Part shown: positions 15,404 through 57,593 of the stretch, one piece after another | Layout: each line of letters opens with the position of its first letter | Position numbering within the stretch: the stretch's first letter is position 1 | From: an uncultured bacterium | GTDB lineage: Bacteria; Latescibacterota; MWCZ01 | Length of the DNA: 64,000 bases | Assembly: GCA_964510105.1 (NCBI GenBank) | Contig: CAZEAI010000003.1 | Location: forward strand, 31,805 to 95,804 | Reading direction: 5' to 3' | Notes under the pieces: model-generated | What the model was told of the DNA's origin: nothing | Seen by the model: the letters and a program-made list of their open reading frames with translations, nothing else | The model's database searches: none | Position numbers and translations under genes: made by a program

Positions 15404-15416
15404 CGCAAGACCGCAG

Positions 15417-25831: not shown

Positions 25832-26164
25832 GTCGTTGTGCCGTGCCTCCGCTGCGGACCCCATCGAACCTCTCCCGCCTCACGCCCTTATTTCCGGGCG
25901 TTCGTCGTCGCCGACATGCCCGCCCTGTTGCGTACCGGGAGCCGGGAGACCTATGTTCCATCGGTGTGGCGTGAGTCCGTACTTGACCCGGTTTGGACCG
26001 CTCAGATCGTCGTGTTCAAGCTACGACGGTACCCGATTAAGCCCCTGTGACTGATGGCTGAAGATAAGACACCCGCGGCGGTACACCAACCGAATTCACT
26101 GGCACGTGTCCCCCGCCGGCGACTCACACGATCGAGCGCTACGACGCCGGGCATTGCGCGAGTC

Positions 26165-26989
26165 ATGAGGTTTGCGTGTGTCGCGCTCATCGCGGCGGCA
26201 CCCGGCACCATCCAGTCCCGTGAATCCGTGACGCGCGACCAGCGCGGTGTAGAGATGGTGTTCGTTCCCGGTACGTCGTTCACCATGGGCAGCTCAGAGG
26301 CCGGAGCGGACGCACGACCGGCTCACGAGGTCATGGTATCCCCGTTCTATGTCGACCTGACAGAGGTCACCTACGCGCAGTTCCATGCGTTTCTCGTCGA
26401 GAACCCGCAGTGGCGCAGGGAGACTGTCGAACCCTCGCTTGCCGACGTCTACTATCTGCGGGACTGGACGGACCTGAGCTATCCGCCCGAGCTGTCGAAC
26501 CATCCCGTCGTATGGGTCAGTTGGGCCGCGGCGAATGCGTATGCCGAATGGCGCGGCGCCCGCCTGCCGACTGAGGCAGAATGGGAACTTGCGGCGCGCG
26601 GCAGCGATGGACGCGTGTGGCCATGGGGCAGCCACGCTCCGGATTCGGGCTCGACGTACTACTGCAACTACCGCGCCGGAGGACGCACGGGTGACGGTCA
26701 TGTTCGCACGGCGCCGGTGGGCAGTTTCCCGCGCGGAGTCAGCCCGTTCGGCGTGTTCGACATGGCCGGAAACGTGTGGGAGTGGACCGCGGACTGGCAC
26801 GACCCGGAGTACTACGTCGAGAGCACTTCACGCGACCCAACCGGGCCGGCGACGGGAACATACCGGGTTGTGCGCGGCGGCTCGTGGAGCGTGCCCGCGC
26901 CGTGGACACGCTCGACCGTTCGGCTCAGGGCGCCCCCATCCCGATGTTCCGATCAGGTCGGATTTCGCTGCGTCGCCCCCATAGATTAG
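26165..26989 (+). CDS. formylglycine-generating enzyme (SUMF1/FGE) family protein, secreted
   Basis: Signal peptide (MRFACVALIAAAPG). FGE-sulfatase domain motifs (WRGARLPTEAEWELAARG, GNVWEWTADW, RVVRGGSW). Confidence 0.7.
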   Translation: MRFACVALIAAAPGTIQSRESVTRDQRGVEMVFVPGTSFTMGSSEAGADARPAHEVMVSPFYVDLTEVTYAQFHAFLVENPQWRRETVEPSLADVYYLRDWTDLSYPPELSNHPVVWVSWAAANAYAEWRGARLPTEAEWELAARGSDGRVWPWGSHAPDSGSTYYCNYRAGGRTGDGHVRTAPVGSFPRGVSPFGVFDMAGNVWEWTADWHDPEYYVESTSRDPTGPATGTYRVVRGGSWSVPAPWTRSTVRLRAPPSRCSDQVGFRCVAPID

Positions 26990-27181
26990 CGTTCACGACG
27001 ATTCGGACGATCGGCAGCCTGATTCTCTACCTAGAGATGTACACACGGTCCGATCCGAGGCCGTCGGGCAACCGATTCGACAGAGAATGGCGTATCTTCA
27101 TTTTGATTGTGCGAGGCCGTCCGGCACCGAAAGCTGGCGCCGACGGCTTGGTCCCATTTCGTCTTTCGGAGGACGAACTAC

Positions 27182-34772: not shown

Positions 34773-36290
34773 ATGGCACTGACACCTCAGGACGCATATC
34801 AGAAGCTCATCGAGCGGTCGAAGCAGGTTGGTCTCCTGGCCACGGTCGGAAGCCTGCTCCACTGGGATATGGAAACCGGCATGCCCGACGGCGGCTCGCA
34901 GCACCGCGGTGAGCAGCTCTCGCTGCTCTCGGGGATGGCGCATGAGCAGTTCGTCGACCCCGCGATGGGCGAATGGCTTGGCGCAGTGGAGGGCAGCGAC
35001 GTCGTCGCCGATCCCGCTTCCGACGCGGCGGTGAACGTCCGCGAATTGCGGCGCGAGTACGACCGCGAGGTGAAGGTGCCGAAAAGGCTGGTCGAGGAAC
35101 TCGCCCGCGTGACCTCGGAGGCGCACGTCGTCTGGCGGGATGCACGCGAGGAGAGCGACTTCCCCGCCTTCGCGCCGATACTGCAGCGCATTGTCGAACT
35201 CACCCGCGAGCAGGCCGACGCCATCGCCAGCGGCACGACGCGCTATGAAACGCTCATGGACGCCTATGAGCCCGGCATGACGACCTCGGAAATGCAGGGC
35301 GTCTTCGACAGTCTCATCAACGACGCGAAGCCGCTTCTCGACGCGGTGATGGCTTCCGGCAAGAAGCCTGACAAGACGATTCTCACGCGGTACTACGAGC
35401 CGGATGGCCAGGAAGCGCTGACGGGTATCATCGCGCAACTTGTCGGGTTCGACCTGCAAAGCGGCGCCATCGCGGAGAGCACCCACCCATTCACCACGGG
35501 GATCGGCGCCGGAGACACGCGTTTCACCACGCGGTACTATCCGAACGAGCTGAACGTGTCGGTCTTCGGCACGCTGCACGAGGCGGGCCACGGGCTCTAC
35601 GACCAGGGGCTGCTCGTCGAACAGCACGGTACGCCCATGGGCGAATCGGTTTCGCTGGGCATACACGAGTCGCAGTCTCGCATGTGGGAGAACCTCGTCG
35701 GCAGGAGCCGGGCGTTCTGGAAGTTCGCGCTCCCGATAGCTCGCGGCGTCTTCCCGCAGAAGCTGGCGGGCGTGTCGCTGGACGACTTCGTATGGGCGAT
35801 CAACGACGTGGAGCCATCGTTCATCCGCGTCGAGGCCGACGAAGCGACGTATAACATGCACATCATGCTTCGCTTCGAAATCGAGCAGAAGATCATCGCA
35901 GGCGATCTCGACGTAGCCGATATCCCGTCCGCATGGAACGAGCGATTCACCGAGCTTCTCGGCATCACGCCGCCGGACGACGCGCACGGCTGTCTGCAGG
36001 ACGTCCACTGGTCGGGCGGGATGTTCGGCTACTTCCCGACGTACACCCTGGGCAATCTGTACAGCGCGCAGTTCTTCGAGAAGGCCCGTGAGGACCTGGG
36101 CGACCTCGACGAGATGTTCGCGCGCGGTGAGTTCGCGCCGTTACTCGGCTGGCTGCGCGAGAACATCCACGTGCACGGGATGAAGTATCGGGCGAGCGAG
36201 TTGGTGAAGCGCGTCACCGGTAAGCCGCTCAGCCACGAACCGCTGGTGCGTTACATGAAGGCGAAGTTTGGGCCGCTCTACGGCATCTGA
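34773..36290 (+). CDS. M32 family carboxypeptidase (Taq-type metallocarboxypeptidase)
   Basis: HPFTTG motif, zinc site HEAGHGLYDQG (HExxH), IRVEADE and GYFPTY conserved segments of M32. Confidence 0.8.
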   Translation: MALTPQDAYQKLIERSKQVGLLATVGSLLHWDMETGMPDGGSQHRGEQLSLLSGMAHEQFVDPAMGEWLGAVEGSDVVADPASDAAVNVRELRREYDREVKVPKRLVEELARVTSEAHVVWRDAREESDFPAFAPILQRIVELTREQADAIASGTTRYETLMDAYEPGMTTSEMQGVFDSLINDAKPLLDAVMASGKKPDKTILTRYYEPDGQEALTGIIAQLVGFDLQSGAIAESTHPFTTGIGAGDTRFTTRYYPNELNVSVFGTLHEAGHGLYDQGLLVEQHGTPMGESVSLGIHESQSRMWENLVGRSRAFWKFALPIARGVFPQKLAGVSLDDFVWAINDVEPSFIRVEADEATYNMHIMLRFEIEQKIIAGDLDVADIPSAWNERFTELLGITPPDDAHGCLQDVHWSGGMFGYFPTYTLGNLYSAQFFEKAREDLGDLDEMFARGEFAPLLGWLRENIHVHGMKYRASELVKRVTGKPLSHEPLVRYMKAKFGPLYGI

Positions 36291-38394: not shown

Positions 38395-38931
38395 ATGCAG
38401 TGTCAGCGGTGTAGTGAAAACGAAGCGACGGTCGCCGTAACGACCGTGGTCGAGGACGACCGTTCGACCGAGCACCTCTGCCGCGTCTGCGCAAAAGAGG
38501 CCGGTGTGGAACTTGGCGCGGAGTGGTCACCGGCGAAGGAGACAACGTCGCCCATGCAGGATGCGAGTGGCGAGCCGATTGCGCACGACGAAGAAGAGGA
38601 ACTCGTGTGTCCGCGATGCGGGCTTTCGTTCCGGCAGTTCAAGGAACGATACCGGGTAGGGTGCGCCGAGTGCTACGATGCATTTCGCGAGCGCATGTCG
38701 CCGCTTCTGCGAAAGGTCCACTCCGCCGATGCTCACACCGGCAAACGGCCCGGCGGAACGAAGCAGGCCGGAGCGGCTGAGAACGACGCCTGGGCGATAG
38801 AAGTGCTGAAGCGACGACTGCAAGCCGCGGTTGAGCGTGAAGAGTTCGAAGAGGCGGCGGGGCTGCGCGACCAGATCAACGAGTACGAGCGTCGCCAGAG
38901 CGCAGACCTCGAGGAGCCGGACGGGCAATGA
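38395..38931 (+). CDS. mcsA: McsA-like protein-arginine kinase activator (double CxxC zinc fingers + UVR motif)
   Basis: CQRCSE...CRVCAKE and CPRCG...CAECYDAF zinc-finger pairs. UvrB/C-like motif (EEFEEAAGLRDQINEYE). Confidence 0.7.
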   Translation: MQCQRCSENEATVAVTTVVEDDRSTEHLCRVCAKEAGVELGAEWSPAKETTSPMQDASGEPIAHDEEEELVCPRCGLSFRQFKERYRVGCAECYDAFRERMSPLLRKVHSADAHTGKRPGGTKQAGAAENDAWAIEVLKRRLQAAVEREEFEEAAGLRDQINEYERRQSADLEEPDGQ

Positions 38932-39986
38932 AGCTCCATGACCTGGTAGATCATTCCGCGGCGTGGCTGGACGCCTCGGGCCCGTACTCCGATGTGATCG
39001 TGTCGAGCCGCGTCAGGCTGGCCCGTAATCTGAGAACCGTACCGTTCACGACTCAGAGCACGCCCGACGAAGAGATCGGGGTCGTCGAAGCCGTGCTTGG
39101 CGCCGCGCAATCGTCCCCCCATCTGCGGGACGGGACGTACTTCGACGTGGCTGCCATGACGGAGGACGACCGGCAGCTCCTGGTCGAACGGCGCCTCATC
39201 AGCCCGGCGCTGGCCCTGCGGAAGGGGCGAGGCGGCGTGCTCGTGGGGCCCCACGAACGTTTCAGCATCATGATCAACGAGGAGGATCACCTACGTTTCC
39301 AGGCGCTCTTCGCCGGGTTTGAGCCGGAGACCGCGTGGTCGCTCGTTGACAGCATCGACGACGATATCTGCGGCGGTCTGGACATCGCTTTCGACGAACA
39401 GATGGGCTACCTGACCGCGTGCCCGACGAACATCGGCACGGGACTGCGCGCCTCAACGCTCATCCATCTGCCGGGACTCGTGCTGGTGGAGTCGATCGAA
39501 GAGGTGCTCCGAGGGATCAACCAGGTGGGCCTCACCGTAAGAGGATTTTACGGGGAGGGCACTGAAGTCGTCGGTAGTTTGTTTCAAGTATCGAACCAGG
39601 TGACGCTCGGAACGTCCGAGTCGGATATCCTGGAAATGCTGGCACGAGTCGTGCGACAGATCATCGACTACGAATACGACGCTCGGCAGACGCTCCTACG
39701 GGACGCAGAGGCGCAGATTGAGGACAAGATCGGCCGGGCAATCGGGATACTCACTCACGCGCACGTTCTGAGCGGCCAGGAGTTCATGAACCTGACCTCG
39801 GCAGTCCGGCTCGGAGTCGGGCTCGGCATACTGAAGCGCCCTGAGACGAAGTTGCTGAACGAACTCATGGTGCAGACGCAGCCGTCGCACATTCAGCGCC
39901 GGGCGGGTTCCCCGGTTGAAAGCGACGAACGCGATCAGCACCGTGCGGAGCTAGTGCGTTCCCGGCTCGCCAACGGCACGACGTAA
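38928..39986 (+). CDS. mcsB: protein-arginine kinase McsB (ATP:guanido phosphotransferase)
   Basis: Phosphagen-kinase active-site motif CPTNIGTGLRAS and flanking conserved segments. 4-bp overlap with mcsA. Confidence 0.85.
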   Translation: MKLHDLVDHSAAWLDASGPYSDVIVSSRVRLARNLRTVPFTTQSTPDEEIGVVEAVLGAAQSSPHLRDGTYFDVAAMTEDDRQLLVERRLISPALALRKGRGGVLVGPHERFSIMINEEDHLRFQALFAGFEPETAWSLVDSIDDDICGGLDIAFDEQMGYLTACPTNIGTGLRASTLIHLPGLVLVESIEEVLRGINQVGLTVRGFYGEGTEVVGSLFQVSNQVTLGTSESDILEMLARVVRQIIDYEYDARQTLLRDAEAQIEDKIGRAIGILTHAHVLSGQEFMNLTSAVRLGVGLGILKRPETKLLNELMVQTQPSHIQRRAGSPVESDERDQHRAELVRSRLANGTT

Positions 39987-40097
39987 GCGAGTCGGCTATC
40001 GCAGCAACGTAGCGCTCCGGAAGGCAGCGAGTCAGCGTCAGGGCAACACGTTACCTCAACACTACCCGCAGTACATAATGAGTCGGAGGCCATCTCC

Positions 40098-42608
40098 ATG
40101 GATCAGATGTTTACGGAACGCGTCAAGAAGGTGATGATTCTCGCTCGCGAGGAGTCTCAGCGTCTCGGGCACGACTATGTCGGCACCGAGCATCTTCTGC
40201 TGGGACTCATCAAGGAGGGCGAGGGAGTCGCCATCACGGTCCTGACTAACCTCGGGCAGGACCCCGATACCATTCGCCAGTCCGTAGAGGACGCGGTGGC
40301 TCAGACCGGCGGCCAGATGCTCATGGGGCAGGCGCCGTTCACACCGAAGGCGAAGGAGATCCTCGATCTCGCGACGAAAGAGGCGAAGGAGATGAAGGTG
40401 CAGTACGTCGGCACCGAGCATCTCCTGCTGGCGCTGACGAAGGATCGCGAGAGCGTGGCCGCGCAGATACTCACGGCGCTCGGCGCGGACTACAAGACGA
40501 TCAAGGAAGAGATCATCTCCGTCATCACCGGCGGCGGCAAGGCGGGGCAGCCTAAGGACAAGAAGAGCAAGACGCCCTTCCTCGACCACTTCGGCCGCGA
40601 CCTCACGAAAATGGCGCGCGAAGACGCACTCGATCCCATCATCGGTCGCGAGAAAGAAATCGAGCGAGTCAGTCAGGTGCTCAGCCGGCGGAAGAAGAAC
40701 AATCCGGTGTTGATCGGGGAACCGGGCGTCGGTAAGACGGCGATCGCCGAAGGACTCGCGCAGAAAATCATCGCGAAGGAAGTACCCCACGTCCTCGAGA
40801 ACAAGCGTGTGGTGACGCTCGACATGGGCGGCATCGTCGCGGGAACGAAGTACCGCGGTCAGTTCGAGGAGCGCGTCAAGGCGATCATGAATGAGCTGGT
40901 GCAGAACCGCGAAGTGATCATCTTCATCGACGAGCTGCACACGATCGTCGGCGCGGGGTCCGCAGAAGGGACGCTGGACGCCTCCAACCTGTTCAAGCCG
41001 GCGCTTTCGCGGGGCGAGCTTCAGTGCATCGGCGCGACGACACTCGACGAGTACCGGAAGTACATCGAGAAGGACGGAGCGCTCGAACGACGGTTCCAGA
41101 CGATCATGATCGAGCCGCCCTCGCAGGAGGACACAGTCCAGATACTGCTCGGATTGCGCCCGAAATACGAGGAGCATCACCGGGTGCAATATCCGGACGC
41201 TTCGATCGAGTCCGCGGTCATTATGGCTGAACGCTACCTCCACGACCGGTACCAGCCGGACAAGTCGCTCGACGTGATCGACGAAGCTGGGTCGCGCGTG
41301 CGTCTCAGTCGCGTGTCCGTCCCCGATGAAGTGAAGGAACTCGAGGTCCAGATCGCCGACATCGAACGCCAAAAGGAAAGCGCGGTCAACGAGCAGGAGT
41401 TCGAGAATGCCGCGAACCTGCGCGACACGGAACGGCGCCTGCTCGAACAGCTTGCGGCTGCGCGCAAGGACTGGGAGCAGTCGCGCGAGCACGATGTCGT
41501 GGAGGTCACCGAGGACGATATCGCATACGTCGTCAGCAACATGACGGGCATCCCGGTGTTCCGGCTGGCGAAGGACGAATCGACGAAGTTGCTTCACATG
41601 GATGACGAGCTTCAGAAGCGAGTCGTCGGACAGGAGAACGCGATCAGCGCCGTCTCGCGAGCCATCAGGCGGTCTCGCAGTGGGCTGAAGGACCCGAACA
41701 GGCCCATCGGTTCGTTCGTGTTCCTCGGCCCGACCGGCGTTGGCAAGACGGAACTTGGCAAGGCTCTCGCGTCGCAGCTTTTCGACGACGAGGACGCGGC
41801 GATCATCATCGACATGTCGGAGTTCATGGAGAAGTTCGCTGTAAGCCGTCTCGTGGGAGCGCCCCCGGGCTACGTCGGATACGACGAAGGCGGGCAGCTC
41901 ACGGAGAAGGTGCGGCGGAAGCCCTACTCGGTGATTCTCCTGGATGAGGTGGAAAAGGCGCACCCGGATGTGTTCAACATCCTGCTCCAGGTGCTCGACG
42001 ACGGCCGTCTCACCGACAGCTACGGTCGGAAGGTCGATTTCCGGAACACGATCCTCATCATGACGTCGAATCTGGGTAGCCGGGATATCGGCGACCTGAC
42101 GGGGTTCGGCTTCACGGCCCGCGATGGAATCCCCTCGCGCTCCGAGATGGAGACGGCCATTAACCGTGAACTCAAGCAGGCATTCAATCCGGAGTTCCTG
42201 AATCGTATCGACGAGGTCGTGATCTTCAACACGCTCACACATGAGAACATGCTGGAAATCTGCGACATCGTCATCGCCGACGTGCGGAAGCGCGTGGTGG
42301 ACCGCGCGCTCTCGATCGAGCTCGGCGACGATGCGAGGAATCTCCTGGCGGAGAAGGGCTTCGATCCGAAACTCGGTGCCCGTCCCCTGAAGCGCACCAT
42401 CCAGCGACTGCTGGAGGATCCGCTATCGGAGGAGATTCTCGCCGGGAAGTTCGCCGATGGCTCGACGATCCTCGTGGGCACAGACGGCGAAGCTTTGACC
42501 TTCACGTTGGCGGACACGCCGGATGCTGGGTCGGACAACGGCGGGGATGGAGGCTCGGGAACCGCCGAGCCGACGGAACCTGTCTCCGTCGACGCGGAAT
42601 CGAACTGA
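40098..42608 (+). CDS. clpC: ATP-dependent Clp protease ATP-binding subunit ClpC
   Basis: Double Clp_N repeats, two AAA+ modules (GEPGVGKT; GPTGVGKT), UVR motif between modules, sensor and ClpB_D2-small. 836 aa. Confidence 0.9.
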
Positions 42609-42797: not shown

Positions 42798-45700
42798 ATG
42801 GCCCAACCTGTGCGACACCGACACCGGTGGCTGACGCCGACGCTGATCGTCGTCGGCGTGCTGACGATCGCAGTGGGACTGTGGGCGGCTCGCACGGTAT
42901 ATCTGCTGGCGGAGAACCTGCGGGAAATCGTCTCCTCGGAGTTCTCGGCTCGAACCGGAGGAACGGTTCGGGTGGCCGATCTCTCGTGGAACTGGCGCTA
43001 TCTGGAGTTCACGTCTGTCGAAGCGGACGCGCCGATGCTGCCCGGCGCGGTGCACCTCCCGACGGTGCGCGTGCACGTGCGGCTTCGCGCCGCGATGGCT
43101 CGCGATCTTCTGGCCGCGGTCGACCGCATCGAACTCGCCTCTCCCACCGTGGTTGTGGACAGAAGCATCGTCGAGCGGGCGAAACAGTGGCGCGACCAGC
43201 CCCCCGTGGACGATGTCGGGCCAATCCCGCGAATGGAGATCGTCGTCGATGATGGCACGGTTCTCTGGCGCGAGGAAGGCACTGACAGCACGGTAGCCGT
43301 CGCGACAGGCATTTCCGGCTGGGTGTCCGTCTCGGATGACGTCGTCCTGAACGTGAGCGGCAGCCTGCTCAGCGGTGAGGTGAACGCGGCAGCCCGGGGA
43401 GTGATCCCGCTCAACGGCGGCAGGCCCGAGGTGGAGCTGTCGGCCGTTCACGTCGATCTGCGCCGCTTCGATCTCGCGGCCGTCGGTTCCGCGGAGGGTC
43501 GAGCGGACCTCTCCGTATCGCTGAACGAGGAAGTGACGGCGCGCCTGGCCCTCACGGGCGCCGAGTTCATCACACGTGACGACATACGGATCGGTCCGAT
43601 CACTACGGAAGTCGCGATCGATGGCAACGCGGCAAGCTGGACGCAGACGGACCTGCCCATCGGCGGGCTGATCCTGAGCACAGTCGGATGCGTGACCTGG
43701 GGCGATGAGCCGTTCATCGACGCACAGGCACGCTGGTCCGGCGACGTGGATCGGCTTGGCAATCTAGTGAGCGATCGGCTGGCGGAACTGCGCGGGAACG
43801 TTCGCGGCAGAATCGACGTGTCGGGACCGCTCAAGAGCCCATCCATCGTATTCGACGCCATGTCGGATTCGCTCCGAGCCGGTCGCCTGATCCTCAGCCG
43901 CATCGGACTCCGAGGGCACACGGAGCCGATGGCCGATGGGCAGGATTCACCGCAGCTAACGTTGGACACGTTCGGCGCCACGTTCGGCAACGACCGCATC
44001 GACGGGACCGGCAGCGCGACGCTGTCTCCTCTCGACGTAGCACTACGGCTGCGCCCCGCCCGGATCCGTCTGGCGTCGCACGAGTCACTTGCCGACGCGG
44101 AGATCACGGGCAGCGTCGTCGTATCTGGCGAAGCCCGGCTGCGCCCCTCCGGGTCCACCGCGTCGCTCCGCATCTCGGATGTCGACGCGCGGATCTCGGG
44201 CCGTTCCCCACCGCTGAGAAGCATCACGGCCACGTATGACTCCTCGGGCATGCTCAGCCTCGCCGGGCATGGACCGGGCCTCGTACTCGCGGCGATCGTC
44301 GACGAAGACAGTCTGCTTGGCGCCCGCCTGACGGGCTCGCTGGACATCTCCGACTACTCGCTGCCGCTCGGCGACCCGCCGGCGGGTGCGCGTGGAGCCC
44401 TGGCGTTCTCGGCAGACGCCAGCGGCCTGCAGCTTGGCGGCGACGTGATCCTTCAGCCTCACAACAGGGACGCGTTCCCGGTGTCCGTCCAGGTGGAGAG
44501 CCGATTCTCGGAGCCGGGCAGTACGACCGTGCGGCTCGCAACGACTTCACTTCCGTACTCGGTGCTGAGACTGGATGCGAACGCCGTGCTCACACTCGAA
44601 AACGGCTCGTGGAGCGTTCAGGGATGGGCCTGGCGCGGCGCGCTGCAGTTCGGCGGGAGGATCGGCGGCGCACGAGATTTCGCCGCGCTTATCCGTGTGC
44701 ACAGAGCCCCCGTGGAGGAGTTGTCCGGCGTCATCCGGATGGACAAGTTCATGACCGCCGGCACCGTCTCCGGGCGTCTGCGCATTGAGAGTACACCCAC
44801 GCGCGGGCTCTCCGGAAGCGGCGATTTCACCATCAGCGACATGACCATGAAGCAAGTGGACTCTCTGCAAGCAAGCGCCAGCATCAACATCACTCCGGCA
44901 GAGGTGTCGTGGAAATCGGGTCCGGTCACGCGAAACGGACGGACCATGGCGTTCACCTCGGGCTCGTACGCCATCCGCAATCGAGTCGCGTCCATAGACA
45001 TCTGGGGCCCTCCGGACGGAAGGATAGAGCATGGTCTCGCGCTCGGGGGGGTATCGCTCAACGCATCGGGAGACGCGCTCTGGTCGGTCGGCATAGTCGA
45101 TACCACGGGCGACGTTCACCCGGCCCGCCTCGACATTGAAGTCCTCGCCACCGACGGCGAACTGCTCACCATACCGTTCGACACCACGCAGATACGCCTG
45201 AACGGAAACACGCACTGGCTGGACTTGGAATACGCGTATCTCTCGAAACACAGATTCTACACGGCTGCGGCCGACGTGGGGCGAGTGCCGGTGGCCCCGC
45301 CCGATGGTGGCGAGTTCGACATCCCGATTCACGTCCGCGATGAGCCTGGGAACGACGTTCTCTGGCTGCTCACACGGCTCATCGACCAGGGCGTCGACGG
45401 CAACGGCTCGGGGCAGGCGTACATCCGAGTGGCCGGGCCGAGCTCGGAGGTCGTGATCGGGGAGGGCTGGGTCCAGATCGACGACGGCACGCTGCGATGG
45501 CCCGGGGGCATCTGGCCTGAGTGGCAACAACTCACAGGTAGGGCTGCGATCGCGCCGGGAGAGCGCTTCATCCGGCTGGAGAACCTGTCGGCCTCCGTCG
45601 GAACCGGGTTCGTGACGGTGAGCAACACTCCGGCGAGCGGGATGGGCGCCACGGCACTCACGATTCCGGCCATAGGGGCGAGCCTGGGAACGCTCCAGAT

Positions 45701-47015
45701 CGAAACGCCCGAGCCCATCCCGCTGCACGTGCGAGGGGGAATGCCGGAGGGCGAATCGCTTGATATCGACCTCAGCGGCAACGAGGTCGTTGAGCGCTTC
45801 ACGATCGCAGGCCCGTGGGAGCACCCGCTTTTCGTCGGCAGCTCCACGCTCAGCAACGGGTTCTTCACGTATCCGCTTGAGGGCGCGTCCGACTCCGACA
45901 CGTTGGATGCAGATGGCGGCAGCTTTGTCGAGAACGTCAACTGGCAGGTGGACCTCGTATCCGGACCCAATCTGACGTACGAGACACGATCCACGCAGAC
46001 GTTGTGGCGCGGCCTGATGCGGGACCCGATAGAACTTCTCGGCTCGATGGCCGCTGAGATGGAGGCGCGTCTCAGCGAGGGGGGTAGAGTCGAACTTCGC
46101 GGCATCTACGCCGACAGCAGCCTGAGCATCATCACGGACAACCTGGTAAGCGATCAGGGACGCATGTCGGTACTCGACATCGACTTCCGCCCGGACGGCC
46201 CCCTCGTGCTGGACTGGGATACACGCGCCGATCCGGAGCCGCTTATCAGAGGTCGCGGCGTCGCGGAGGTCGAGATCGACCAGGATGCCTATGGCGAGCC
46301 GGATGCCGGCTCGGGAAGCCTCAGCCGCGAACGCCAGTACCAGAAAATCTACGCCCGCCTCGTGAGTGTAGATCCGCTGACCGGCGTCGTTCGGGAGGGC
46401 GGCAGGCTGGGAGAGCTACGCGTCGAGCTTGACACGGATGCGAGTCGTCAGGGACCCGTCGGCGAGCGCCAACAGCTCGCGGTCTTGCGCATGCTCGGGT
46501 ACCACGCTCCGGTACTCGGCGAGCAGGACTACGACCCGGCGGAGTCGCAGAGCATCGATCCGAAGGACATTGTGACGGCGGGCTATCGGACGCTCCTGAG
46601 ACGGAGCGAGCAGCAGGCGTGGAGGTCGCTGTTCTACCCGTTCCGGCGACAGATACGCAAACTCACGCGCATCGACGTTGTGGAAGTCGAACCATCGTTC
46701 GTGCTAAATCTGCTCGATCGCGATACATACAGCCGGCAGGAACTCACTCCCGAGCAGGCGTACCTGACCTATCTGCAGGGCACGAACTGGACCGTGGGCG
46801 AGTACGTGTGGGGACGATTCCTCTTGTCGTACCATGGCGAACTCGAGCTGACGAGCATCGCACGACCCACTATCGGCGCACGTCACGAGATCGGCGTCGA
46901 GTGGGCCATCAGCCCGCAGACTCGACTCGAACTCAGCCGCGATATCGATGTACCCATCGGCGAGCCAGATACTCGGATCGGCCTGTCGCATCGGTTCGCA
47001 TTCCAGTCATACTAG
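42798..47015 (+). CDS. tamB: translocation-and-assembly-module TamB-like protein (AsmA/DUF490 family), 1405 aa
   Basis: N-terminal signal anchor (LTPTLIVVGVLTIAVGLWAA). Very long beta-rich repetitive body. C-terminal DUF490-like end (...RIGLSHRFAFQSY). Confidence 0.6.
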   Translation: MAQPVRHRHRWLTPTLIVVGVLTIAVGLWAARTVYLLAENLREIVSSEFSARTGGTVRVADLSWNWRYLEFTSVEADAPMLPGAVHLPTVRVHVRLRAAMARDLLAAVDRIELASPTVVVDRSIVERAKQWRDQPPVDDVGPIPRMEIVVDDGTVLWREEGTDSTVAVATGISGWVSVSDDVVLNVSGSLLSGEVNAAARGVIPLNGGRPEVELSAVHVDLRRFDLAAVGSAEGRADLSVSLNEEVTARLALTGAEFITRDDIRIGPITTEVAIDGNAASWTQTDLPIGGLILSTVGCVTWGDEPFIDAQARWSGDVDRLGNLVSDRLAELRGNVRGRIDVSGPLKSPSIVFDAMSDSLRAGRLILSRIGLRGHTEPMADGQDSPQLTLDTFGATFGNDRIDGTGSATLSPLDVALRLRPARIRLASHESLADAEITGSVVVSGEARLRPSGSTASLRISDVDARISGRSPPLRSITATYDSSGMLSLAGHGPGLVLAAIVDEDSLLGARLTGSLDISDYSLPLGDPPAGARGALAFSADASGLQLGGDVILQPHNRDAFPVSVQVESRFSEPGSTTVRLATTSLPYSVLRLDANAVLTLENGSWSVQGWAWRGALQFGGRIGGARDFAALIRVHRAPVEELSGVIRMDKFMTAGTVSGRLRIESTPTRGLSGSGDFTISDMTMKQVDSLQASASINITPAEVSWKSGPVTRNGRTMAFTSGSYAIRNRVASIDIWGPPDGRIEHGLALGGVSLNASGDALWSVGIVDTTGDVHPARLDIEVLATDGELLTIPFDTTQIRLNGNTHWLDLEYAYLSKHRFYTAAADVGRVPVAPPDGGEFDIPIHVRDEPGNDVLWLLTRLIDQGVDGNGSGQAYIRVAGPSSEVVIGEGWVQIDDGTLRWPGGIWPEWQQLTGRAAIAPGERFIRLENLSASVGTGFVTVSNTPASGMGATALTIPAIGASLGTLQIETPEPIPLHVRGGMPEGESLDIDLSGNEVVERFTIAGPWEHPLFVGSSTLSNGFFTYPLEGASDSDTLDADGGSFVENVNWQVDLVSGPNLTYETRSTQTLWRGLMRDPIELLGSMAAEMEARLSEGGRVELRGIYADSSLSIITDNLVSDQGRMSVLDIDFRPDGPLVLDWDTRADPEPLIRGRGVAEVEIDQDAYGEPDAGSGSLSRERQYQKIYARLVSVDPLTGVVREGGRLGELRVELDTDASRQGPVGERQQLAVLRMLGYHAPVLGEQDYDPAESQSIDPKDIVTAGYRTLLRRSEQQAWRSLFYPFRRQIRKLTRIDVVEVEPSFVLNLLDRDTYSRQELTPEQAYLTYLQGTNWTVGEYVWGRFLLSYHGELELTSIARPTIGARHEIGVEWAISPQTRLELSRDIDVPIGEPDTRIGLSHRFAFQSY

Positions 47016-50357: not shown

Positions 50358-50771
50358 GTGCCAATGCTGTCGCAGACCTCGCTGCACGCGCTCCGCGCGC
50401 TCGCGCACATGGTCGAACACCGCGACGAGGAGCCGATCCTGTCCAGAGAGATCGGCGAATCGACGGACATACCGGCGAACTACCTGTCGAAGATCATGCA
50501 CGCGCTGGGCGCGGCGGGCGTACTCACCGCGGTGCGAGGCAAGAACGGGGGGTACCGATTCGCTCAGGACCCCTCGCGGACGCGGATCGTGGATATCGTG
50601 AACCTCTTCCAGAACACGGAGCAGTTCCGCGTGTGCCTGCTGGGAAACCAACGGTGCTCCGACGACAAGCCGTGCCTCATACACGAGCGTTGGAAGCCAG
50701 CGTCGGAGGCCATGTTCAAGTTCCTCGATGAGACGAGTCTGGCGGATCTGCGCGCGCCCGATATACCGTAA
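50358..50771 (+). CDS. Rrf2-family transcriptional regulator (NsrR/IscR-like, three-Cys cluster ligands)
   Basis: N-terminal wHTH (SLHALRALAHMVEH...REIGESTDIPANYLSKIMHALGAAGVLTAVRGKNGGYRF) and C-terminal CxxxxxxCxxxxxC ligand set (CLLGNQRCSDDKPC). Confidence 0.75.
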   Translation: MPMLSQTSLHALRALAHMVEHRDEEPILSREIGESTDIPANYLSKIMHALGAAGVLTAVRGKNGGYRFAQDPSRTRIVDIVNLFQNTEQFRVCLLGNQRCSDDKPCLIHERWKPASEAMFKFLDETSLADLRAPDIP

Positions 50772-50831
50772 CACTGCGAACTACGCTTACGCACACACGA
50801 CCACATCCAGCCCACTCGGGAGTTACCAAGC

Positions 50832-51380
50832 ATGGACGCAATCGAACAGCTCATGGCGGAGCACAGAATCATAGAGTCAGTCATCTCGGCGCTCGATGCA
50901 TACGTGGCTCGCGTCGCAGCCGGCGACGACGTTCCCTCCGAGGACGCGGCCCGTTTCGCGGAGTTCTTCCGTGAGTACGCCGACAGGTGCCACCACGGCA
51001 AGGAAGAGGATATCCTGTTCATCTCCATGATCGAGCATGGATTCCAGAAAGAGGCCGGCCCGCTGGCCGTCATGTACCAGGAACACGACGCCGGGCGAGC
51101 GCACGTACGCGGGCTGCGCGAAGCGGCATCCGCCGGAGCATGGACCCCGGACAGTCGCGATGCTGTCGTCGAGCATGGTACTCAGTTCGGAGAGCTCCTG
51201 CGCGCCCACATCCAGAAAGAGGACGGCATCCTCTACCCCATGGCCACCACCCGCATCCCCGAGGCGCGCATGTCGGCGATGGCCGGGGAATTCGACGCCT
51301 TCAATCGAGACGACGTCGGCACCGAAGTCCAGATCAAGCTCCAGGCTCTCGCGGACGAGCTTATAGCGCTATATCCGTAA
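50832..51380 (+). CDS. hemerythrin HHE cation-binding domain protein (di-iron; likely nitrosative/oxidative-stress related)
   Basis: H..E/HH..EE spacing (EHRIIE...HHGKEEDILF...HIQKEDGILYP) typical of hemerythrin-like domains. Immediately downstream of the Rrf2 regulator. Confidence 0.6.
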   Translation: MDAIEQLMAEHRIIESVISALDAYVARVAAGDDVPSEDAARFAEFFREYADRCHHGKEEDILFISMIEHGFQKEAGPLAVMYQEHDAGRAHVRGLREAASAGAWTPDSRDAVVEHGTQFGELLRAHIQKEDGILYPMATTRIPEARMSAMAGEFDAFNRDDVGTEVQIKLQALADELIALYP

Positions 51381-52956: not shown

Positions 52957-55326
52957 ATGACCGGCACGCATACTCTCGACGTCCTCGAATTCCCTCGAGT
53001 GAAGACTCTCATCGCCGAACTCGCGGCTTCCGCGTTCGGGCGGGAGGCGGTTGAGCAGTCCGAACCCTTGTCCGACCCCGATGACATCCGTGAGCAACTC
53101 GCGTTTGCCGACGAGATGGCGCAGGCTGTCCGCTGGGGTGACCCGGTTCCCATGGGCGGACTGCGCGACATCCGGAACGCGCTCGCAGTCGCCGAGCACC
53201 CCGGCTCCCGAATAGATCCGACTGAACTCCTCGAACTAGGCGACACGATCCGTTCGACGGGTCGCATCAAGTCCCATTTTGGCTCTCGGCGGGAGAAGTA
53301 CCCACGCATCGCCGACATCGCGTCGGCGATCGAGGACGCAAGCGATCTCGCGGCCAAGATCGACCGAATCGTCGACGGAGGCGGCTTCGTGAAGGACTCG
53401 GCCAGCTCGAAGCTGGCGCGCCTCCGACGCGACCTCGATCAGGAGCGGCAATCGTTGCGCTCGGGGCTCGACCGCATGGTGAACCGCCTTTCGGACGACG
53501 TGATCGGGGACCGGGTCGTGTCGTTCCGGGCCGGGCGGCCGGTCATACCGATTCGCGCAACTCACCGGAACCGGCTGCCGGGCATCGTGCATGACCAGTC
53601 CGCCACAGGTCAGACGATCTTCGTCGAGCCGATGGAATCGGTTGAGCAGTCGAATCACATACGACAGCTTGAGCTTGACGAAGAGCGCGAGGTCGAACGC
53701 ATCCTCACCGAGCTGACCGACGCCGTCAGGGAGCACGTCCCGGCCATACGTTCGACGCTGACGGTGGTGCGGGAGCTGGACCGTCTCTACGCCATCGCGT
53801 CGTACGCGGACACATCGAACGGCGTCGCTCCGACGATCAGCGACGACGGCACGTTCAAACTCGTCGAGATGCGACACCCGCTACTCGACGAACGTCTGCG
53901 CGCCGAGGGTGGCGAGGGCGCCGTTCCCGTCACGGTACGTCTGACCGGCGATCAGCGAATCGTGGTCGTCAGCGGCCCCAATGCCGGCGGCAAGACCGTC
54001 GCGCTGAAGACCATCGGGCTGGCAAGCGTGATGGCGCAGGCGGGATTCCTCATTCCCGCGGGCCATCTCACCGTATTGCCCACGTTCACGACCGTATTCG
54101 CGGAGATCGGCGACGAGCAGTCCATCGAGCAGGATCTTTCCACGTTCAGCTCTCGCATGGGGCACCTTGCCCGCATTTCCGAGGAGGCCGACAGCGATAC
54201 CCTCGTGCTCATCGACGAGCTTGGCTCAGCTACGGACCCGGAGCAGGGCGCCGCTCTCTCGCGCGCGCTGCTCAGCCGATGGGGAGATCGGGGCGCGCTC
54301 GCGATCGTAACGACTCACCTCGGCGCGCTCAAGGAATTCGCCCACGAGCATCCCCGCGCGGCGAATGCATCGATGGAGTTCGATCAGGAGTCGCTCAGTC
54401 CGACGTTCCGGCTGCACCTCGGAATCCCCGGATCCAGCTACGCGCTGGAGATATCGCGGCGAGTCGGGTTGGAGCAGGAGATCATCGACGACGCGGAACG
54501 CCAACTCGGCGAGGATGTCGTCCGCACGGAAGAACTCATCGCCGACCTCACGAGGCGGCTCGAACGGGCTGTCGAGCGCGAACGCGAGCTGGAACGGCGG
54601 GCTCGGGAGCTTGAGACCCGCGAATCGGAATACGAGGAACGATTCTCCGCCGTGCGCGCCGACCAGAAACGGCTGGTTCGCGAGGCCAACGAGAAGGCGG
54701 AGAAGATCCTGCTCGATTCCCGTGCGCTCGTGGAGCGGACCGTCGCGGAGCTGCGTCGGACGCAAGCTTCCAGCGACGCCATACGCGAGGGGCGGCATTC
54801 GATTCAGGAGTCGCTTGCCGAGACTCGAAAGGCCATCGAGGCAAGTGCGCCGGAGCCGGTGGTCCGCACCGACAAGCTTGAGGTTGGTGATTGGGTGCGT
54901 GTGGCAAGCCTGGGCCTGACTGGCGAACTCGTGGCGCTCGACAAGCACCGTGGGGCCGTCCAGACGGACACCGCCCGGATGGAGGTCTCCGCCGATCAGA
55001 TCGAGCGCGCGGGGGAACGTCCACGCGGCCGCGCGACGAAGGGCGGCGGCGTCTCGGCCCAGACGTCCGCGGCAGACACGTTCAAACCCGAGATCGACGT
55101 GCGCGGCCTGACGTTCGACGACGCGTGGACACTCGTCGACCGGTATCTCGACGACGCCGTGCTGGCCAGGTATCCCCGCGTGCGCATCATTCACGGCAAG
55201 GGAACCGGCGCACTGAGGAAGAAATTCGGCGAGCAGCTCGCCGGCGACGACCGCGCGGGTTCACATGCGCTCGGGGAACTGCACGAGGGCGGCATCGGCG
55301 TGACCGTCGTGAACGTGCGGAGTTGA
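52957..55326 (+). CDS. mutS2: endonuclease MutS2 (MutS domain V ATPase + C-terminal Smr domain)
   Basis: Walker A (SGPNAGGKTV), ST..DELG.ATDP, long coiled-coil, C-terminal Smr (IDVRGLTFDDAW...IIHGKGTGALR). Confidence 0.85.
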   Translation: MTGTHTLDVLEFPRVKTLIAELAASAFGREAVEQSEPLSDPDDIREQLAFADEMAQAVRWGDPVPMGGLRDIRNALAVAEHPGSRIDPTELLELGDTIRSTGRIKSHFGSRREKYPRIADIASAIEDASDLAAKIDRIVDGGGFVKDSASSKLARLRRDLDQERQSLRSGLDRMVNRLSDDVIGDRVVSFRAGRPVIPIRATHRNRLPGIVHDQSATGQTIFVEPMESVEQSNHIRQLELDEEREVERILTELTDAVREHVPAIRSTLTVVRELDRLYAIASYADTSNGVAPTISDDGTFKLVEMRHPLLDERLRAEGGEGAVPVTVRLTGDQRIVVVSGPNAGGKTVALKTIGLASVMAQAGFLIPAGHLTVLPTFTTVFAEIGDEQSIEQDLSTFSSRMGHLARISEEADSDTLVLIDELGSATDPEQGAALSRALLSRWGDRGALAIVTTHLGALKEFAHEHPRAANASMEFDQESLSPTFRLHLGIPGSSYALEISRRVGLEQEIIDDAERQLGEDVVRTEELIADLTRRLERAVERERELERRARELETRESEYEERFSAVRADQKRLVREANEKAEKILLDSRALVERTVAELRRTQASSDAIREGRHSIQESLAETRKAIEASAPEPVVRTDKLEVGDWVRVASLGLTGELVALDKHRGAVQTDTARMEVSADQIERAGERPRGRATKGGGVSAQTSAADTFKPEIDVRGLTFDDAWTLVDRYLDDAVLARYPRVRIIHGKGTGALRKKFGEQLAGDDRAGSHALGELHEGGIGVTVVNVRS

Positions 55327-55451
55327 CAACCCACCGCCTCGTTGGTTCATTTTGTATGACTGCTGGAACCGCCAGCACCCTCGCTCGTCACACAGTACAG
55401 CCCGGGAACCGCACGTCCTGTTCCTCGGTGGTCAGCAGGGAGGTGGCCGGT

Positions 55452-56237
55452 ATGAAACGCGAGACCCTTCTGCGGTTCACGCTCCTGGTGGCGCTGTCAC
55501 TCGCCGCCGGTGGATGCTACACGGTTCTCACTCACCCGCAGACTACGCCGGAACAGCACGTCACTGACACCGGTGACGTGCTCGCGCCGAACGACTGCTC
55601 GGGATGCCATTCGGGCAGCGAACTCTGGTCATACCACCACGACGCCTACTGGCTCGCCCCGAGCCATCATAGCAGCCTGTCCGGCCCGAGCCATCGCAAC
55701 AGCCTGTCGGGCTACTACGCCTACCGCTACGACCATCTCTTCGTCGGACATCGCTGGTACAATCGCCGTTACTACGATCGCTGGGCATGGTATTACTACC
55801 AGCCGTGGTGGATGTATGACCGCCATCCGCAGCGAGGAGACCATTACGGTCGGCCTGCCGAACAACGACCCACTAGGCATCTCGGCGACCGTCGCGATGG
55901 GTACGACCGTCAGGAGCCGCGCAGCGAGTTCACGCCATATATCGGACCGGGCACCGGCCCCATGACATTCTCGTCTCCGCTTCAGCCCGCGGCGTCGACC
56001 GGCTCGACGGGGCGAGCGCGAACCACTGGCGGCGGCGCTGAAGTGAACGCTGACACGTCGAACGAGCGCAAACTCGGAGATCGGCGGGCCGATCCTCCGG
56101 CTGCTGCGCCCACAACAACTCAGCCGTCGTCGTCCGGTGGCAGCAGGCCAGCGCAGGACGGCGCCAGCAGCGACTCCAACGACGACGGTGACGATGAGCA
56201 ACCTCAGCGGCGACGGCTAGGGGATCGACGCCGCTAG
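55452..56237 (+). CDS. lipoprotein with a single CxxCH motif and an extreme Trp/Tyr/Arg/His-rich low-complexity region
   Basis: Lipobox LAAGGC. NDCSGCHSG (CxxCH). RWYNRRYYDRWAWYYYQPWWMYDRHPQRGDHYGRP. C-terminal Ser/Asp-rich tail. The ORF-track N-extension from 54891 runs inside mutS2 and is rejected. Confidence 0.45.
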   Translation: MKRETLLRFTLLVALSLAAGGCYTVLTHPQTTPEQHVTDTGDVLAPNDCSGCHSGSELWSYHHDAYWLAPSHHSSLSGPSHRNSLSGYYAYRYDHLFVGHRWYNRRYYDRWAWYYYQPWWMYDRHPQRGDHYGRPAEQRPTRHLGDRRDGYDRQEPRSEFTPYIGPGTGPMTFSSPLQPAASTGSTGRARTTGGGAEVNADTSNERKLGDRRADPPAAAPTTTQPSSSGGSRPAQDGASSDSNDDGDDEQPQRRRLGDRRR

Positions 56238-56267: not shown

Positions 56268-57593
56268 ATGACGGGTGCATGGCTTCGGCGAGTCGGCCTC
56301 ACGTTTGCCGGTCTCTTGGTCGCGACACAGACGGCCTCTGCTCAGCAGATTCTGGATATCCGGGATTTCCGAATGGACCTCGGTTTCCAGATCACGGGCG
56401 GATTCGTCGGCGTCGGTGCACGGGAAATGGGGATGGGGGGCGCAGCTCTGGCTGGCGTGTCAGACGGGAGCGCCCTGTACTGGAACCCGGCGGCGCTCAC
56501 GAGAGTTCGCAGAATGGAGCTTCTCGCTGGCCTATCGCGCGCGGGCTCTTCACCCACCACTACCATGGGTCTCGCTCATCCCGTGGATGCAAGCGCATCC
56601 GCAGCGTTCACGCGACTCAACGCCGCCGTCATCACAGCGCCCTATCCTGCATACCGGGGCGGACTGACATTCGCCATCGGATATGATCGTCCTGGCGACT
56701 ACACCTATCGTTCCGAGCAACGGGGACCCTTTTCCCGGAACGGCGCTGACTACGACCAAGTAGATGATGTCCGTCAGGAGGGAGGGCTTTCCCAGCTTTC
56801 CATCGGGTTCGGAGTCGAGATATCTCAGCAGGTGGCAGTCGGCTTGTCAAGCACTTGGTACCGTGGCGATCTGAGCGTTCGTCGCGAACTGACTCTGGCA
56901 CCAACCGACGGAGGCGGGCAGCTCTACGGGGTGTTCAGGCAGAACTCCGATATCAGCGGCTACATGGTCACTGCCGGAACTACGGCTCAGCTCCCCCATG
57001 GACTTGTTCTTGGTCTCGCAGCAACACCACCCGTGACGTACACCGTCGACGGCACCTTCGGTGACGCCTACAACGATTTTCCGGAAGAAGAAGAGGGCCA
57101 GTATCGATACAAGGTGGAGGGCCCGTGGGTCCTCGGCACGGGGTTGGCGTGGACAACGTACGCTCTCACCATCGCCACCGACATCTGGTTCGTCGACTGG
57201 AGCCAGGCAACGTTCAAGGAAAGCCCGTTCGCGGCGGGGTCCGAGGCGTCACCGGGCACGCCGAACGCAGACACATATTTCAGAGACTACTACGACAGCC
57301 CCATCCGATGGCACGTGGGCCTGGAGGCGCTCCTGCCGTGGATAGCCACCGTGGCCCGCGTGGGCTACTACTCGAATCCCGATCCGTTCGCCGGCCCGGT
57401 GCTTTCCACCGGCGAAGCCGTCACGTACACCGAGCGCGCGGGCTACTTCACGGCCGGGCTGGGCTGGCTCATCGACGACACGGTGACCGTGGATCTCGCT
57501 TACACCACCGGCGGGGACGAGTATCGCGCGGGCACGCTGACCGAGACCCGCAACAGCGATTCCGCGTTCCTCACCGTCGGATTCAGGCTCTGA
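56268..57593 (+). CDS. outer-membrane beta-barrel protein of the FadL/PorV-like superfamily (second copy in window)
   Basis: Signal peptide (LLVATQTASAQQ). Family signature GMGGAALAGVSDGSALYWNPAALT. Amphipathic beta-strand-like composition, C-terminal TVGFRL. Confidence 0.5.
   Translation: MTGAWLRRVGLTFAGLLVATQTASAQQILDIRDFRMDLGFQITGGFVGVGAREMGMGGAALAGVSDGSALYWNPAALTRVRRMELLAGLSRAGSSPTTTMGLAHPVDASASAAFTRLNAAVITAPYPAYRGGLTFAIGYDRPGDYTYRSEQRGPFSRNGADYDQVDDVRQEGGLSQLSIGFGVEISQQVAVGLSSTWYRGDLSVRRELTLAPTDGGGQLYGVFRQNSDISGYMVTAGTTAQLPHGLVLGLAATPPVTYTVDGTFGDAYNDFPEEEEGQYRYKVEGPWVLGTGLAWTTYALTIATDIWFVDWSQATFKESPFAAGSEASPGTPNADTYFRDYYDSPIRWHVGLEALLPWIATVARVGYYSNPDPFAGPVLSTGEAVTYTERAGYFTAGLGWLIDDTVTVDLAYTTGGDEYRAGTLTETRNSDSAFLTVGFRL

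Follow-up and report, generated by a model that had tools for sequence, protein, structure and literature searches.

What is encoded by a bacterial gene whose product carries a single heme-attachment motif close to a lipid anchor, continues into a run of tyrosines and tryptophans, and lies directly in front of an outer-membrane barrel? This question is raised by positions 55452 to 56237 of a 64-kb stretch of DNA from an uncultured bacterium (contig CAZEAI010000003.1; the whole stretch analysed is hereafter the window), for which a first reading of the letters alone, here the original prediction, had proposed a monoheme redox lipoprotein with an aromatic electron relay. The best explanation that we can offer, held tentatively and at a little below even confidence, is that the gene encodes a minimal heme-c lipoprotein of the outer membrane that serves as dedicated partner to the BamG-like barrel, of FadL fold, whose gene follows immediately downstream. 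The gene is real and its frame correct, its pairing with the barrel is conserved and often translationally coupled, and the family to which it belongs is rare, new and undescribed, is restricted to lineages of the Fibrobacterota-Chlorobiota-Bacteroidota (FCB) superphylum, and joins known elements in a new arrangement.

The gene and its probable ribosome-binding site are placed as follows.

55438-55443, + strand: Shine-Dalgarno-like GGGAGG, 8 nt 5' of the ATG at 55452, as read from the sequence
55452-56237, + strand: lipoprotein gene, 261 amino acids plus stop (ATG at 55452, stop codon at 56235-56237)

A chance open reading frame (ORF) or a wrong frame in GC-rich DNA, with no gene at all, is the reading that the mechanically computed ORF could invite, which at 54891-56237 is far longer than the gene and overlaps mutS2 (52957-55326; MutS_V and Smr domains by Pfam), as could the many spurious ORFs that overlap the region on both strands. 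The 5' extension (54891-55451), the part that overlaps mutS2, has codon-position GC contents of 0.77/0.72/0.54, the opposite of a coding pattern; in the gene proper (55452-56237) the third codon position is the most GC-rich and the second the least (GC3 > GC1 > GC2). Homologue alignments begin at the Met of ATG 55452 and not at the longer gene-caller start, and against a 78%-identical homologue the ratio of non-synonymous to synonymous substitution rates (dN/dS) is 0.06 for residues 1-125, 0.18 for residues 126-180 and 0.37 for the tail. Because of the GC3 pattern, the Shine-Dalgarno site, the point at which the alignments start and the low dN/dS of the core, the frame is correct, which settles by codon-position GC and dN/dS a doubt that the original prediction had itself voiced. 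Together with protein homologues that keep the conserved motifs down to 20% identity, and with conserved synteny, these results already refute a chance ORF, to which we assign next to no probability. Two public gene calls begin too far 5' (P0001 and P0060, which give 293-aa and 453-aa versions, the latter entering mutS2), and the 261-aa database entry P0059 agrees with the homologue alignment and the Shine-Dalgarno site.

Within this frame the protein divides into the following segments.

55452-55514, + strand: signal peptide, residues 1-21, basic then hydrophobic and ending in the lipobox ...LAAGG (MKRETLLRFTLLVALSLAAGG-C22)
55515-55538, + strand: predicted lipid-modified Cys22 and the near-invariant mature N-terminus C-Y-T-V-L-T-H-P, in which H28 and P29 are invariant
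55596-55610, + strand: CxxCH (C49-S-G-C52-H53), the c-type heme attachment motif, within NDCSGCHSG (residues 47-55)
55701-55826, + strand: Tyr/Trp/Arg/His-rich block, residues 84-125 (SLSGYYAYRYDHLF...YYDRWAWYYYQPWWMYDRH), a composition outlier
55827-56234, + strand: predicted disordered polar tail, residues 126-261, with a predicted local distance difference test score (pLDDT) below 50, a basic C-terminus and three LGDRR
55881-55895, 56073-56087 and 56217-56231, + strand: the three copies of the pentapeptide LGDRR, found in the sequence of the tail

The sequence thus carries a lipoprotein signature, with a predicted signal peptide, a lipobox and a Cys at +1. Wherever the lipobox is retained, Gly occupies position -1 (53/53 members), and position -3 is hydrophobic in most of these members and Ala in the window protein. 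The signal peptide is also the sole segment to which AlphaFold2 gives a pLDDT of ~90, modelling it as a helix. Both the lipobox and the lone CxxCH of the original prediction are present, at C22 and C49-H53.

The lipoprotein belongs to no Pfam or NCBIfam family (Pfam returned none at E <= 1), there is no curated family or annotation for it, and literature searches found no prior description of such a lipoprotein. A first search gave 8 clusters with 40-100% identity, and a profile run exhaustively against 1.84 billion representative proteins gave 18 matches at E <= 0.001, one of which (P0021) is an unrelated multi-domain cytochrome c. Profile search of a 5.8-billion-sequence index added 37 clusters, several of them labelled as metagenome-assembled genomes (MAGs) of Ignavibacteria or Ignavibacteriales. 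Furthermore, a member in Zixibacteria was reached by walking upstream from a barrel homologue (family hidden Markov model, HMM, 1.8e-10 and 1.6e-18), and a scan of species-representative genomes gave one further locus only, on a MAG contig that ends before the barrel. The total comes to ~55 sequence clusters from Ignavibacteria, Zixibacteria and the window's own high-GC lineage.

Conservation was counted over 54 aligned members, 53 of them with an intact N-terminus, at identities down to ~20%. H28, P29, C49, C52, H53, W119 and W120 are invariant (54/54), G21, C22, Y23, T24, Y114, P118 and R253 are nearly so, and Y103, Y107 and Y108 in the aromatic block and G145 and R254 in the tail are further conserved positions. 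Every protein has exactly one CxxCH (54/54), which lies 27-30 residues past the lipid Cys in all of the intact N-termini (53/53), nearly all members have exactly three Cys, and the PWW follows the CxxCH after 37-70 residues, usually 50-70. The motif varies freely at the xx dipeptide and is fixed at C, C and H alone; the family signature can be written as [LIFVM]-x-G-C-Y-T-[VM]-[LIV]-x-H-P ... V-x5-C-x-x-C-H-[TS]. The original prediction would have fallen had CxxCH been lost from orthologues, and the motif is retained in all of them; what it had not anticipated is that C-Y-T-[VM]-[LIV]-x-H-P after the lipid Cys is essentially invariant, nor that the barrel is BamG-like.

The composition of the middle of the protein proved as atypical as had been proposed. 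W, Y, R and H make up 47% of residues 55-144, the ~90 residues said to be dominated by them, and the best 40-residue segment contains 16 Tyr+Trp, compared with 9 in the runner-up among 33 window proteins (background Y 2.3%, W 1.7%). The string quoted in the original prediction, WYNRRYYDRWAWYYYQPWWMYDRHPQRGDHYGRP, begins at residue 102, and the 19 residues 102-120 have a Wimley-White interfacial free energy of -9.6 kcal/mol; the codons of W119-W120 are at 55806-55811, and the P118 before them is nearly invariant. As for the Ser/Asp/Gly-rich polar tail that was described, in the window protein it abounds in G, R, D, S, P, T and A, and across the family the tails are ~10% hydrophobic and ~57% S/T/N/Q/G/P over a length of 100-140 residues. 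They carry 1-4 short basic motifs, which read GRG or RRG and, in the window protein, LGDRR, typically one ~20 residues after PWW and another at the very C-terminus. The repetition of LGDRR, with GRG or EKPxRRGG at equivalent positions in other clades, suggests from sequence a short linear binding motif and not mere low complexity.

A Tyr/Trp/Arg-rich block followed by repeated GRG/RRG/LGDRR in a disordered tail would also suit a protein that binds polyanions (nucleic acid, lipopolysaccharide, polysaccharide or peptidoglycan) at the surface or in the periplasm through Tyr/Trp stacking and GRG/RRG, the CxxCH then being structural, and a neighbouring lipoprotein at one Ignavibacteria locus (L008), which has a Tyr/Trp/Gly block and a basic tail and is without CxxCH, could be cited in its favour. 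However, this neighbour is not detectably homologous to the family, the window protein has no homology to any binding domain, and such a role leaves unexplained both the invariance of CxxCH and H28-P29 and the obligatory coupling to the barrel. We consider it improbable, and the nucleic-acid- or polysaccharide-binding surface protein that the original prediction had entertained as its alternative gains no specific support beyond composition.

The gene downstream is the second half of the argument.

56268-57593, + strand: outer-membrane barrel with a predicted FadL fold, BamG-like, 441 amino acids from ATG 56268 (the mechanical ORF starts from GTG 56247)

ATG 56268 is the probable start, as GGAAGG precedes it and it agrees with a 441-aa database entry. 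In the window it lies 30 nt downstream of the lipoprotein gene, and no terminator-like or promoter-like site was found between the two. The lipoprotein gene is directly 5' of the barrel gene in every locus examined (the window, L002-L006, L008/L009, L012, L013, a JGI contig and L016), at a spacing of -4 to +56 nt and often with a 4-nt overlap. In close relatives the order is cvpA - mutS2 - lipoprotein - barrel - major facilitator superfamily transporter, and distant members have other flanks: cysS and rsgA on an Ignavibacteria contig, a CitMHS transporter in Zixibacteria, and tsaE, rseC, ssb and a tetratricopeptide-repeat gene in others. The paired barrels are orthologous, those of the window and of Ignavibacteria being 26% identical over their full length (E = 3e-28). 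The position immediately upstream of an outer-membrane barrel, already pointed out in the original prediction, is therefore a pairing that is conserved across distant lineages with differing flanks. A more distant relative of the barrel (27% identity; L014 4993-5859, L015 4954-5859), which sits beside the ribosomal protein/secY operon, is preceded by an M48 metallopeptidase lipoprotein and by no family member, and therefore the coupling to the CxxCH lipoprotein is specific to one barrel clade. From these gene orders, FadL/BamG-like barrels of these phyla seem to pair generally with different lipoproteins.

Further genes were seen upstream of the pair in other members. An outer-membrane-protein-like gene of ~261 aa with a signal peptide lies 5' of it in L008 (4626-5414), L012 (8606-9391), L013 (9109-9897) and the JGI contig; its copies share 33-50% identity among themselves and have no Pfam or NCBIfam family, and tblastn did not find the gene in the window. 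Directly 5' of the L008 family member, on an Ignavibacteria contig, lies the 360-aa lipoprotein mentioned above (5571-6653, + strand). It shares the GCYT lipobox, its Tyr/Trp/Gly block (...WGDPWYSPWYWSGWYDNYWYSDPFSYYPSYYYGPGYGYWYPHYGHNYGWGNWYTY...) is more extreme still, and its R/N/Q/S tail finishes with GRRR. It was considered as a CxxCH-less paralogue and rejected, the family HMM failing to detect it at E <= 10, which leaves it a compositional analogue only. A third component was likewise dismissed: the 360-366-aa genes upstream in L008 and L010 are mutually unrelated, that of L010 encoding a WD40 protein.

By profile, by PDB sequence and by predicted fold the nearest relative of the barrel is BamG, of which it would be at best a distant, paralogue-like version. 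Against Pfam the window barrel gave a weak match to Toluene_X (FadL), for which its orthologues pass the cutoff, and against NCBIfam BamG was first or nearly first for 6/6 barrels tested, alongside PorV-family models; the BamG scores (50 bits for the window barrel, 45-85 bits for orthologues) are all far below the equivalog cutoff of 250. AlphaFold2 modelled the barrel with a pLDDT of 84.8 and a predicted template modelling score (pTM) of 0.80, and the top three Foldseek matches of the model are BamG chains (9hiv_F, 5e-19; 9n2d_B, 3.5e-17; 9hjm_F, 4e-16) from the barrel assembly machinery (BAM) complexes of B. thetaiotaomicron, F. johnsoniae and P. gingivalis, followed at lower ranks by TodX and FadL (~1e-14 to 1e-9) and PorV (1e-8). 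The sequence profile against the PDB likewise placed BamG first (3.3e-14 and 3.4e-8), with a FadL homologue at 1.6e-5. Barrels of the window clade have ~12-14 extra, semi-conserved N-terminal residues (L-x-D-I-x-D-I-S-x-G-x-G-E) when compared with unpaired relatives, a segment of pLDDT <50 which, by analogy, is reminiscent of the N-terminal extension that in BamG exits through the lateral opening.

The BAM complex of Bacteroidota includes BamG as a FadL-like subunit that is essential, and homologues of BamG and BamH occur in most FCB phyla (PMC12611786). A putative operon of B. thetaiotaomicron contains their paralogues, BamG2 and BamH2 (PMC12578637). BamG has a groove in which BamH is bound by its lipidated N-tail (PMC12611786), and BamM contributes to BAM a lipoprotein domain devoid of secondary structure, which takes its organisation from metal ions that it binds (PMC12611786, PMC12578637). 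Acidic residues after the lipid Cys act as a surface-lipoprotein export signal in BamH-K (PMC12578637). The likeness of our pair to BamG-BamH and BamG2-BamH2 (PDB 9n2d, 9hiv, 9hjm; PMC12611786, PMC12578637) lies in the combination of a FadL-fold, 14-stranded FCB barrel with a lipoprotein; where the N-tail of BamH is bound by BamG, it is the residues right after the lipid Cys that are nearly invariant in the window family. The window barrel is thus of the FadL type with 14 strands and closest to BamG, yet it scores under the 250-bit equivalog cutoff. Moreover, BamH has a carbohydrate-binding-type fold, whereas the window lipoprotein is mostly disordered, lacks similarity to BamH and has Y-T-V-L-T-H-P after the Cys instead of the acidic export signal, and its invariant CxxCH is present in no described BAM subunit.

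This likeness leads to the main rival explanation, that the lipoprotein is a non-heme accessory of a BamG-type biogenesis module, an analogue of BamH or BamM. H28, C49, C52 and H53 would then coordinate Zn, Cu or Fe as a structural or sensed metal, or C49-C52 would form a redox-sensing disulfide like the CxxC of NlpE, the aromatic block and N-tail would clamp the lipoprotein to the barrel, and the module would aid outer-membrane protein assembly or quality control. The agreement of three independent methods on BamG as the nearest barrel relative speaks for it, as do the precedents of BamG-BamH, BamG2-BamH2 and the metal-organised BamM (PMC12611786, PMC12578637), the housekeeping neighbourhood, the lack of a predicted cytochrome fold, and the M48 lipoprotein peptidase paired with the distant barrel, which makes barrel-lipoprotein pairing appear general. 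On the other hand, the His after the second Cys in 54/54 members with a free xx is the pattern of a heme site and not of a tuned redox CxxC, the weak PDB profile matches are nearly all cytochromes, and no similarity was found to the PDB chains of BamH, BamI, BamJ, BamK or BamM at E <= 10. In addition, there is no acidic residue after the lipid Cys, unlike in BamH-K (PMC12578637), and the barrels score 45-85 bits where the BamG equivalog cutoff is 250. A further objection, the usual fate of an exported CxxCH, is taken up below. We judge this explanation unlikely, in the sense of well short of even, and treat it as the one to be weighed most seriously against a heme-c partner of the barrel.

On either account the lipoprotein and the barrel probably form a physical complex. 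We infer this because the interfacial aromatic block, for which no fold is predicted, is combined with an invariant mature N-terminus, in parallel to the N-tail of BamH bound by BamG; such invariance is unusual among lipoprotein tethers.

Does the CxxCH carry heme? Covalent heme c is, on balance, the likelier state of this motif. It lies downstream of the signal peptide, as the exported CxxCH of a c-type cytochrome does, and the pattern is that of a heme motif because variation is confined to the xx dipeptide, with C, C and H invariant. There is one further invariant His (H28), no Cys is to spare, and secretion of the protein is certain. An exported CxxCH is nearly all that the Ccm and Ccs systems require for recognition, and in bacteria that make c-type cytochromes such a motif is normally a substrate for heme attachment, a point that also tells against a non-heme accessory lipoprotein. 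When the family profile was searched against the PDB, 15/16 weak matches were c-type cytochromes, aligned on the CxxCH context G-x-V-x5-C-x-x-C-H-T (in the window protein, G-D-V-L-A-P-N-D-C-S-G-C-H-S-G-S-E-L-W), and the sole non-family match of the exhaustive search, P0021, is a multi-domain cytochrome c that was matched 8 times on the same context. A cultured relative in the Ignavibacteria has CcmF and c-type cytochromes (PMC5492636).

Several observations weigh against heme c and against a redox partnership with the barrel. The PDB cytochrome matches are individually insignificant, and no cytochrome family model matches: the match to NCBIfam cytochrome c551 (NF045774), at E = 0.15 over residues 1-55 and with 12 bits against a cutoff of 118, was rejected as insignificant. 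AlphaFold2, given the 54-sequence alignment, predicted no cytochrome-like fold (mean pLDDT 54.6, pTM 0.22), with residues 30-60 at ~70, short helices at 95-123 at ~65-69 and a disordered tail, and Foldseek found no match of this model in the PDB. The CxxC-H and His set could serve just as well as a site for Cu or Zn or as a redox-sensing disulfide, and one heme cannot span a membrane. The pair sits among housekeeping genes (mutS2, cvpA, rsgA, tsaE, ssb), which fits envelope biogenesis at least as well as respiration. Finally, the 64 kb showed neither genes for cytochrome c maturation nor any further cytochrome, which is uninformative either way; no other likely gene of the window, the neighbours included, has a CxxCH. 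The original prediction of a monoheme redox lipoprotein with an aromatic relay is thus supported in part: the lipoprotein has held up, whereas the heme and the relay are putative, the context of the CxxCH being weakly cytochrome-like, Pfam giving no cytochrome match, and the AlphaFold2 model being of low confidence and unmatched by Foldseek.

The same motif and anchor might instead belong to an ordinary membrane-tethered respiratory monoheme cytochrome c, comparable to c551 of Bacillus, that shuttles between inner-membrane complexes and is next to the barrel incidentally. The signal peptide, lipobox and CxxCH would all fit, as would the very weak c551 match, and the Bacillus protein (NF045774) resembles ours in having its single CxxCH within ~30 residues of the lipid Cys. 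Here, however, no class-I fold follows the motif, the organism is a diderm and the gene is coupled to a barrel. The class I families Cytochrom_C and Cytochrome_CBB3 were not recovered (no Pfam family at E <= 1), AlphaFold2 modelled no helical fold of this kind, and the motif is followed not by a helical core but by a low-complexity aromatic block and then a disordered tail. By the E. coli rule, Tyr at +2 does not signal retention in the inner membrane, and the adjacency to the barrel, often with the 4-nt overlap, is kept in lineages that otherwise differ in their neighbours. This makes a tethered respiratory cytochrome quite improbable. A hemophore or heme-uptake protein was rejected as well, since CxxCH implies covalent and not exchangeable heme.

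The heme-c partner of a BamG-like barrel which we tentatively favour could be built as follows. The protein would be exported by Sec, lipidated at Cys22 and sorted by Lol (Tyr at +2), and its single CxxCH would most likely be loaded with heme c by the cytochrome c maturation system of the cell. H53 would be the proximal ligand, and H28, six residues past the lipid Cys, the distal one, giving a bis-His heme; H28 as sixth ligand is a possible assignment, to which we give rather less than even weight, and H62, H72 and H95, each conserved within clades, are candidate distal ligands besides the invariant H28. Such a heme would lie at the membrane surface, because the H28-H53 site is within ~30 residues of the lipid anchor. 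The mature N-terminus (CYTVxxHP) and the Tyr/Trp block (...YYxRWxxYYxxPWW), which have no autonomous fold, would become ordered against the membrane interface and the barrel, with the heme clamped beside or in the barrel, and residues 22-29 may double as a barrel-docking segment by analogy with the BamH N-tail in its BamG groove. The polar tail of 100-140 residues, with GRG/RRG/LGDRR, would stay disordered and reach other envelope components. The two proteins would thereby make a minimal two-gene cytochrome-barrel unit, with one redox centre at or in an outer-membrane barrel. As to its role, electron transfer at or through the outer membrane is a doubtful proposition.

The closest functional analogue of the pair, if this model is followed, would be the iron oxidase Cyc2, a fused monoheme cytochrome-porin (PMC8406198), in which one CxxCH in a short, N-terminal and otherwise featureless segment is likewise joined to an outer-membrane barrel, a partnership inferred from the genes in our case. 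However, in Cyc2 one polypeptide includes the 16-stranded, OprP-like porin, whereas here there are two genes and a FadL/BamG-type barrel, and Cyc2 has no lipid anchor, Tyr/Trp block or basic tail. Membership of Cyc2 itself was rejected, as PxFAR[QK][TY] 5 residues upstream and PxL 4 residues downstream of the CxxCH are both absent. The porin-cytochrome conduits MtrCAB and Geobacter Pcc are similar in that the gene for an outer-membrane barrel lies next to genes for c-type cytochromes, lipoproteins among them, but there chains of 8-12 hemes span the membrane in a 20-26-stranded barrel, while here a single heme motif accompanies a plugged FadL-type barrel. The multiheme arrangement of Mtr and Pcc (at least 8 CxxCH beside a large porin-like barrel) was not found, the one CxxCH having no counterpart in the neighbouring genes.

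NlpE and RcsF, sensor proteins of enterobacteria, offer a different comparison, both being small outer-membrane lipoproteins; the CxxC of NlpE is functionally important, and the disordered linker of RcsF threads an outer-membrane barrel. They differ from the window protein in having no known sequence or fold similarity to it and in coming from another phylum, and the invariant His after its CxxC points to heme and away from a disulfide or a copper site.

At its boldest the model would describe a new outer-membrane redox device, a lipid-anchored heme c clamped at a BamG-type barrel, with the Tyr/Trp cluster as a hopping relay or a barrel-inserted segment, which would serve either one-heme passage of electrons across the outer membrane, as a split FCB counterpart of Cyc2, or a redox-dependent assembly module of BamG type. 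To this we give little credence. It was not until 2025 that barrels of the BamG type were seen to be essential and lineage-specific components of outer-membrane biogenesis in Bacteroidota, and what is defined here is a compact and sharply conserved lipoprotein family, obligatorily coupled to one distant BamG relative and with a heme motif beside its lipid anchor. If heme is bound, no smaller lipoprotein cytochrome module would be known, and the pair would parallel Cyc2 with two genes and bear on cell-surface electron exchange or envelope redox sensing in uncultured Ignavibacteria, Zixibacteria and related lineages; if it is not, the family would represent a new type of barrel-associated accessory lipoprotein. 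Either way the pair provides a simple handle on an uncharacterised outer-membrane system.

Upstream of the lipoprotein gene by ~4 kb, an Rrf2-family regulator is followed by a hemerythrin-domain protein (50358-51380, + strand). L003 shows the same order (Rrf2 - hemerythrin - S21 - YqeY - CvpA - MutS2 - lipoprotein - barrel), which may be clade synteny only.

The window contains a second FadL/PorV-like barrel (29479-31053, + strand; Pfam DUF5723 at 1.2e-12, weak PorV_fam). On its 5' side are an 805-aa protein without a family (27107-29524, + strand) and an FGE-sulfatase/GldK-like protein (26054-26989, + strand; GldK 6e-33, below cutoff). By its gene content, the region 26054-31053 (+ strand) may be another barrel-plus-partner module in the same organism.

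At 38395-42608 (+ strand) McsA, McsB (protein arginine kinase, above the NCBIfam cutoff) and an 836-aa gene that looks ClpC-like by position and N-terminal sequence stand in succession, an arrangement best known from Firmicutes, which in the window co-occurs with outer-membrane barrels and LolC/E-like genes. Three large proteins of 1405, 888 and 705 aa (42798-47015, 7395-10061 and 3743-5860) matched nothing in Pfam at E <= 1e-5 and nothing meaningful in NCBIfam, and an Rfam scan of the window found no rRNA or other RNA family. The C-terminal domain of the branched-chain polyamine synthase BpsA (15237-16592, + strand; 9e-38) and a homologue of the M32 carboxypeptidase Taq (34773-36290) are also encoded, and together, as far as such similarities go, they hint at a thermophilic lifestyle.

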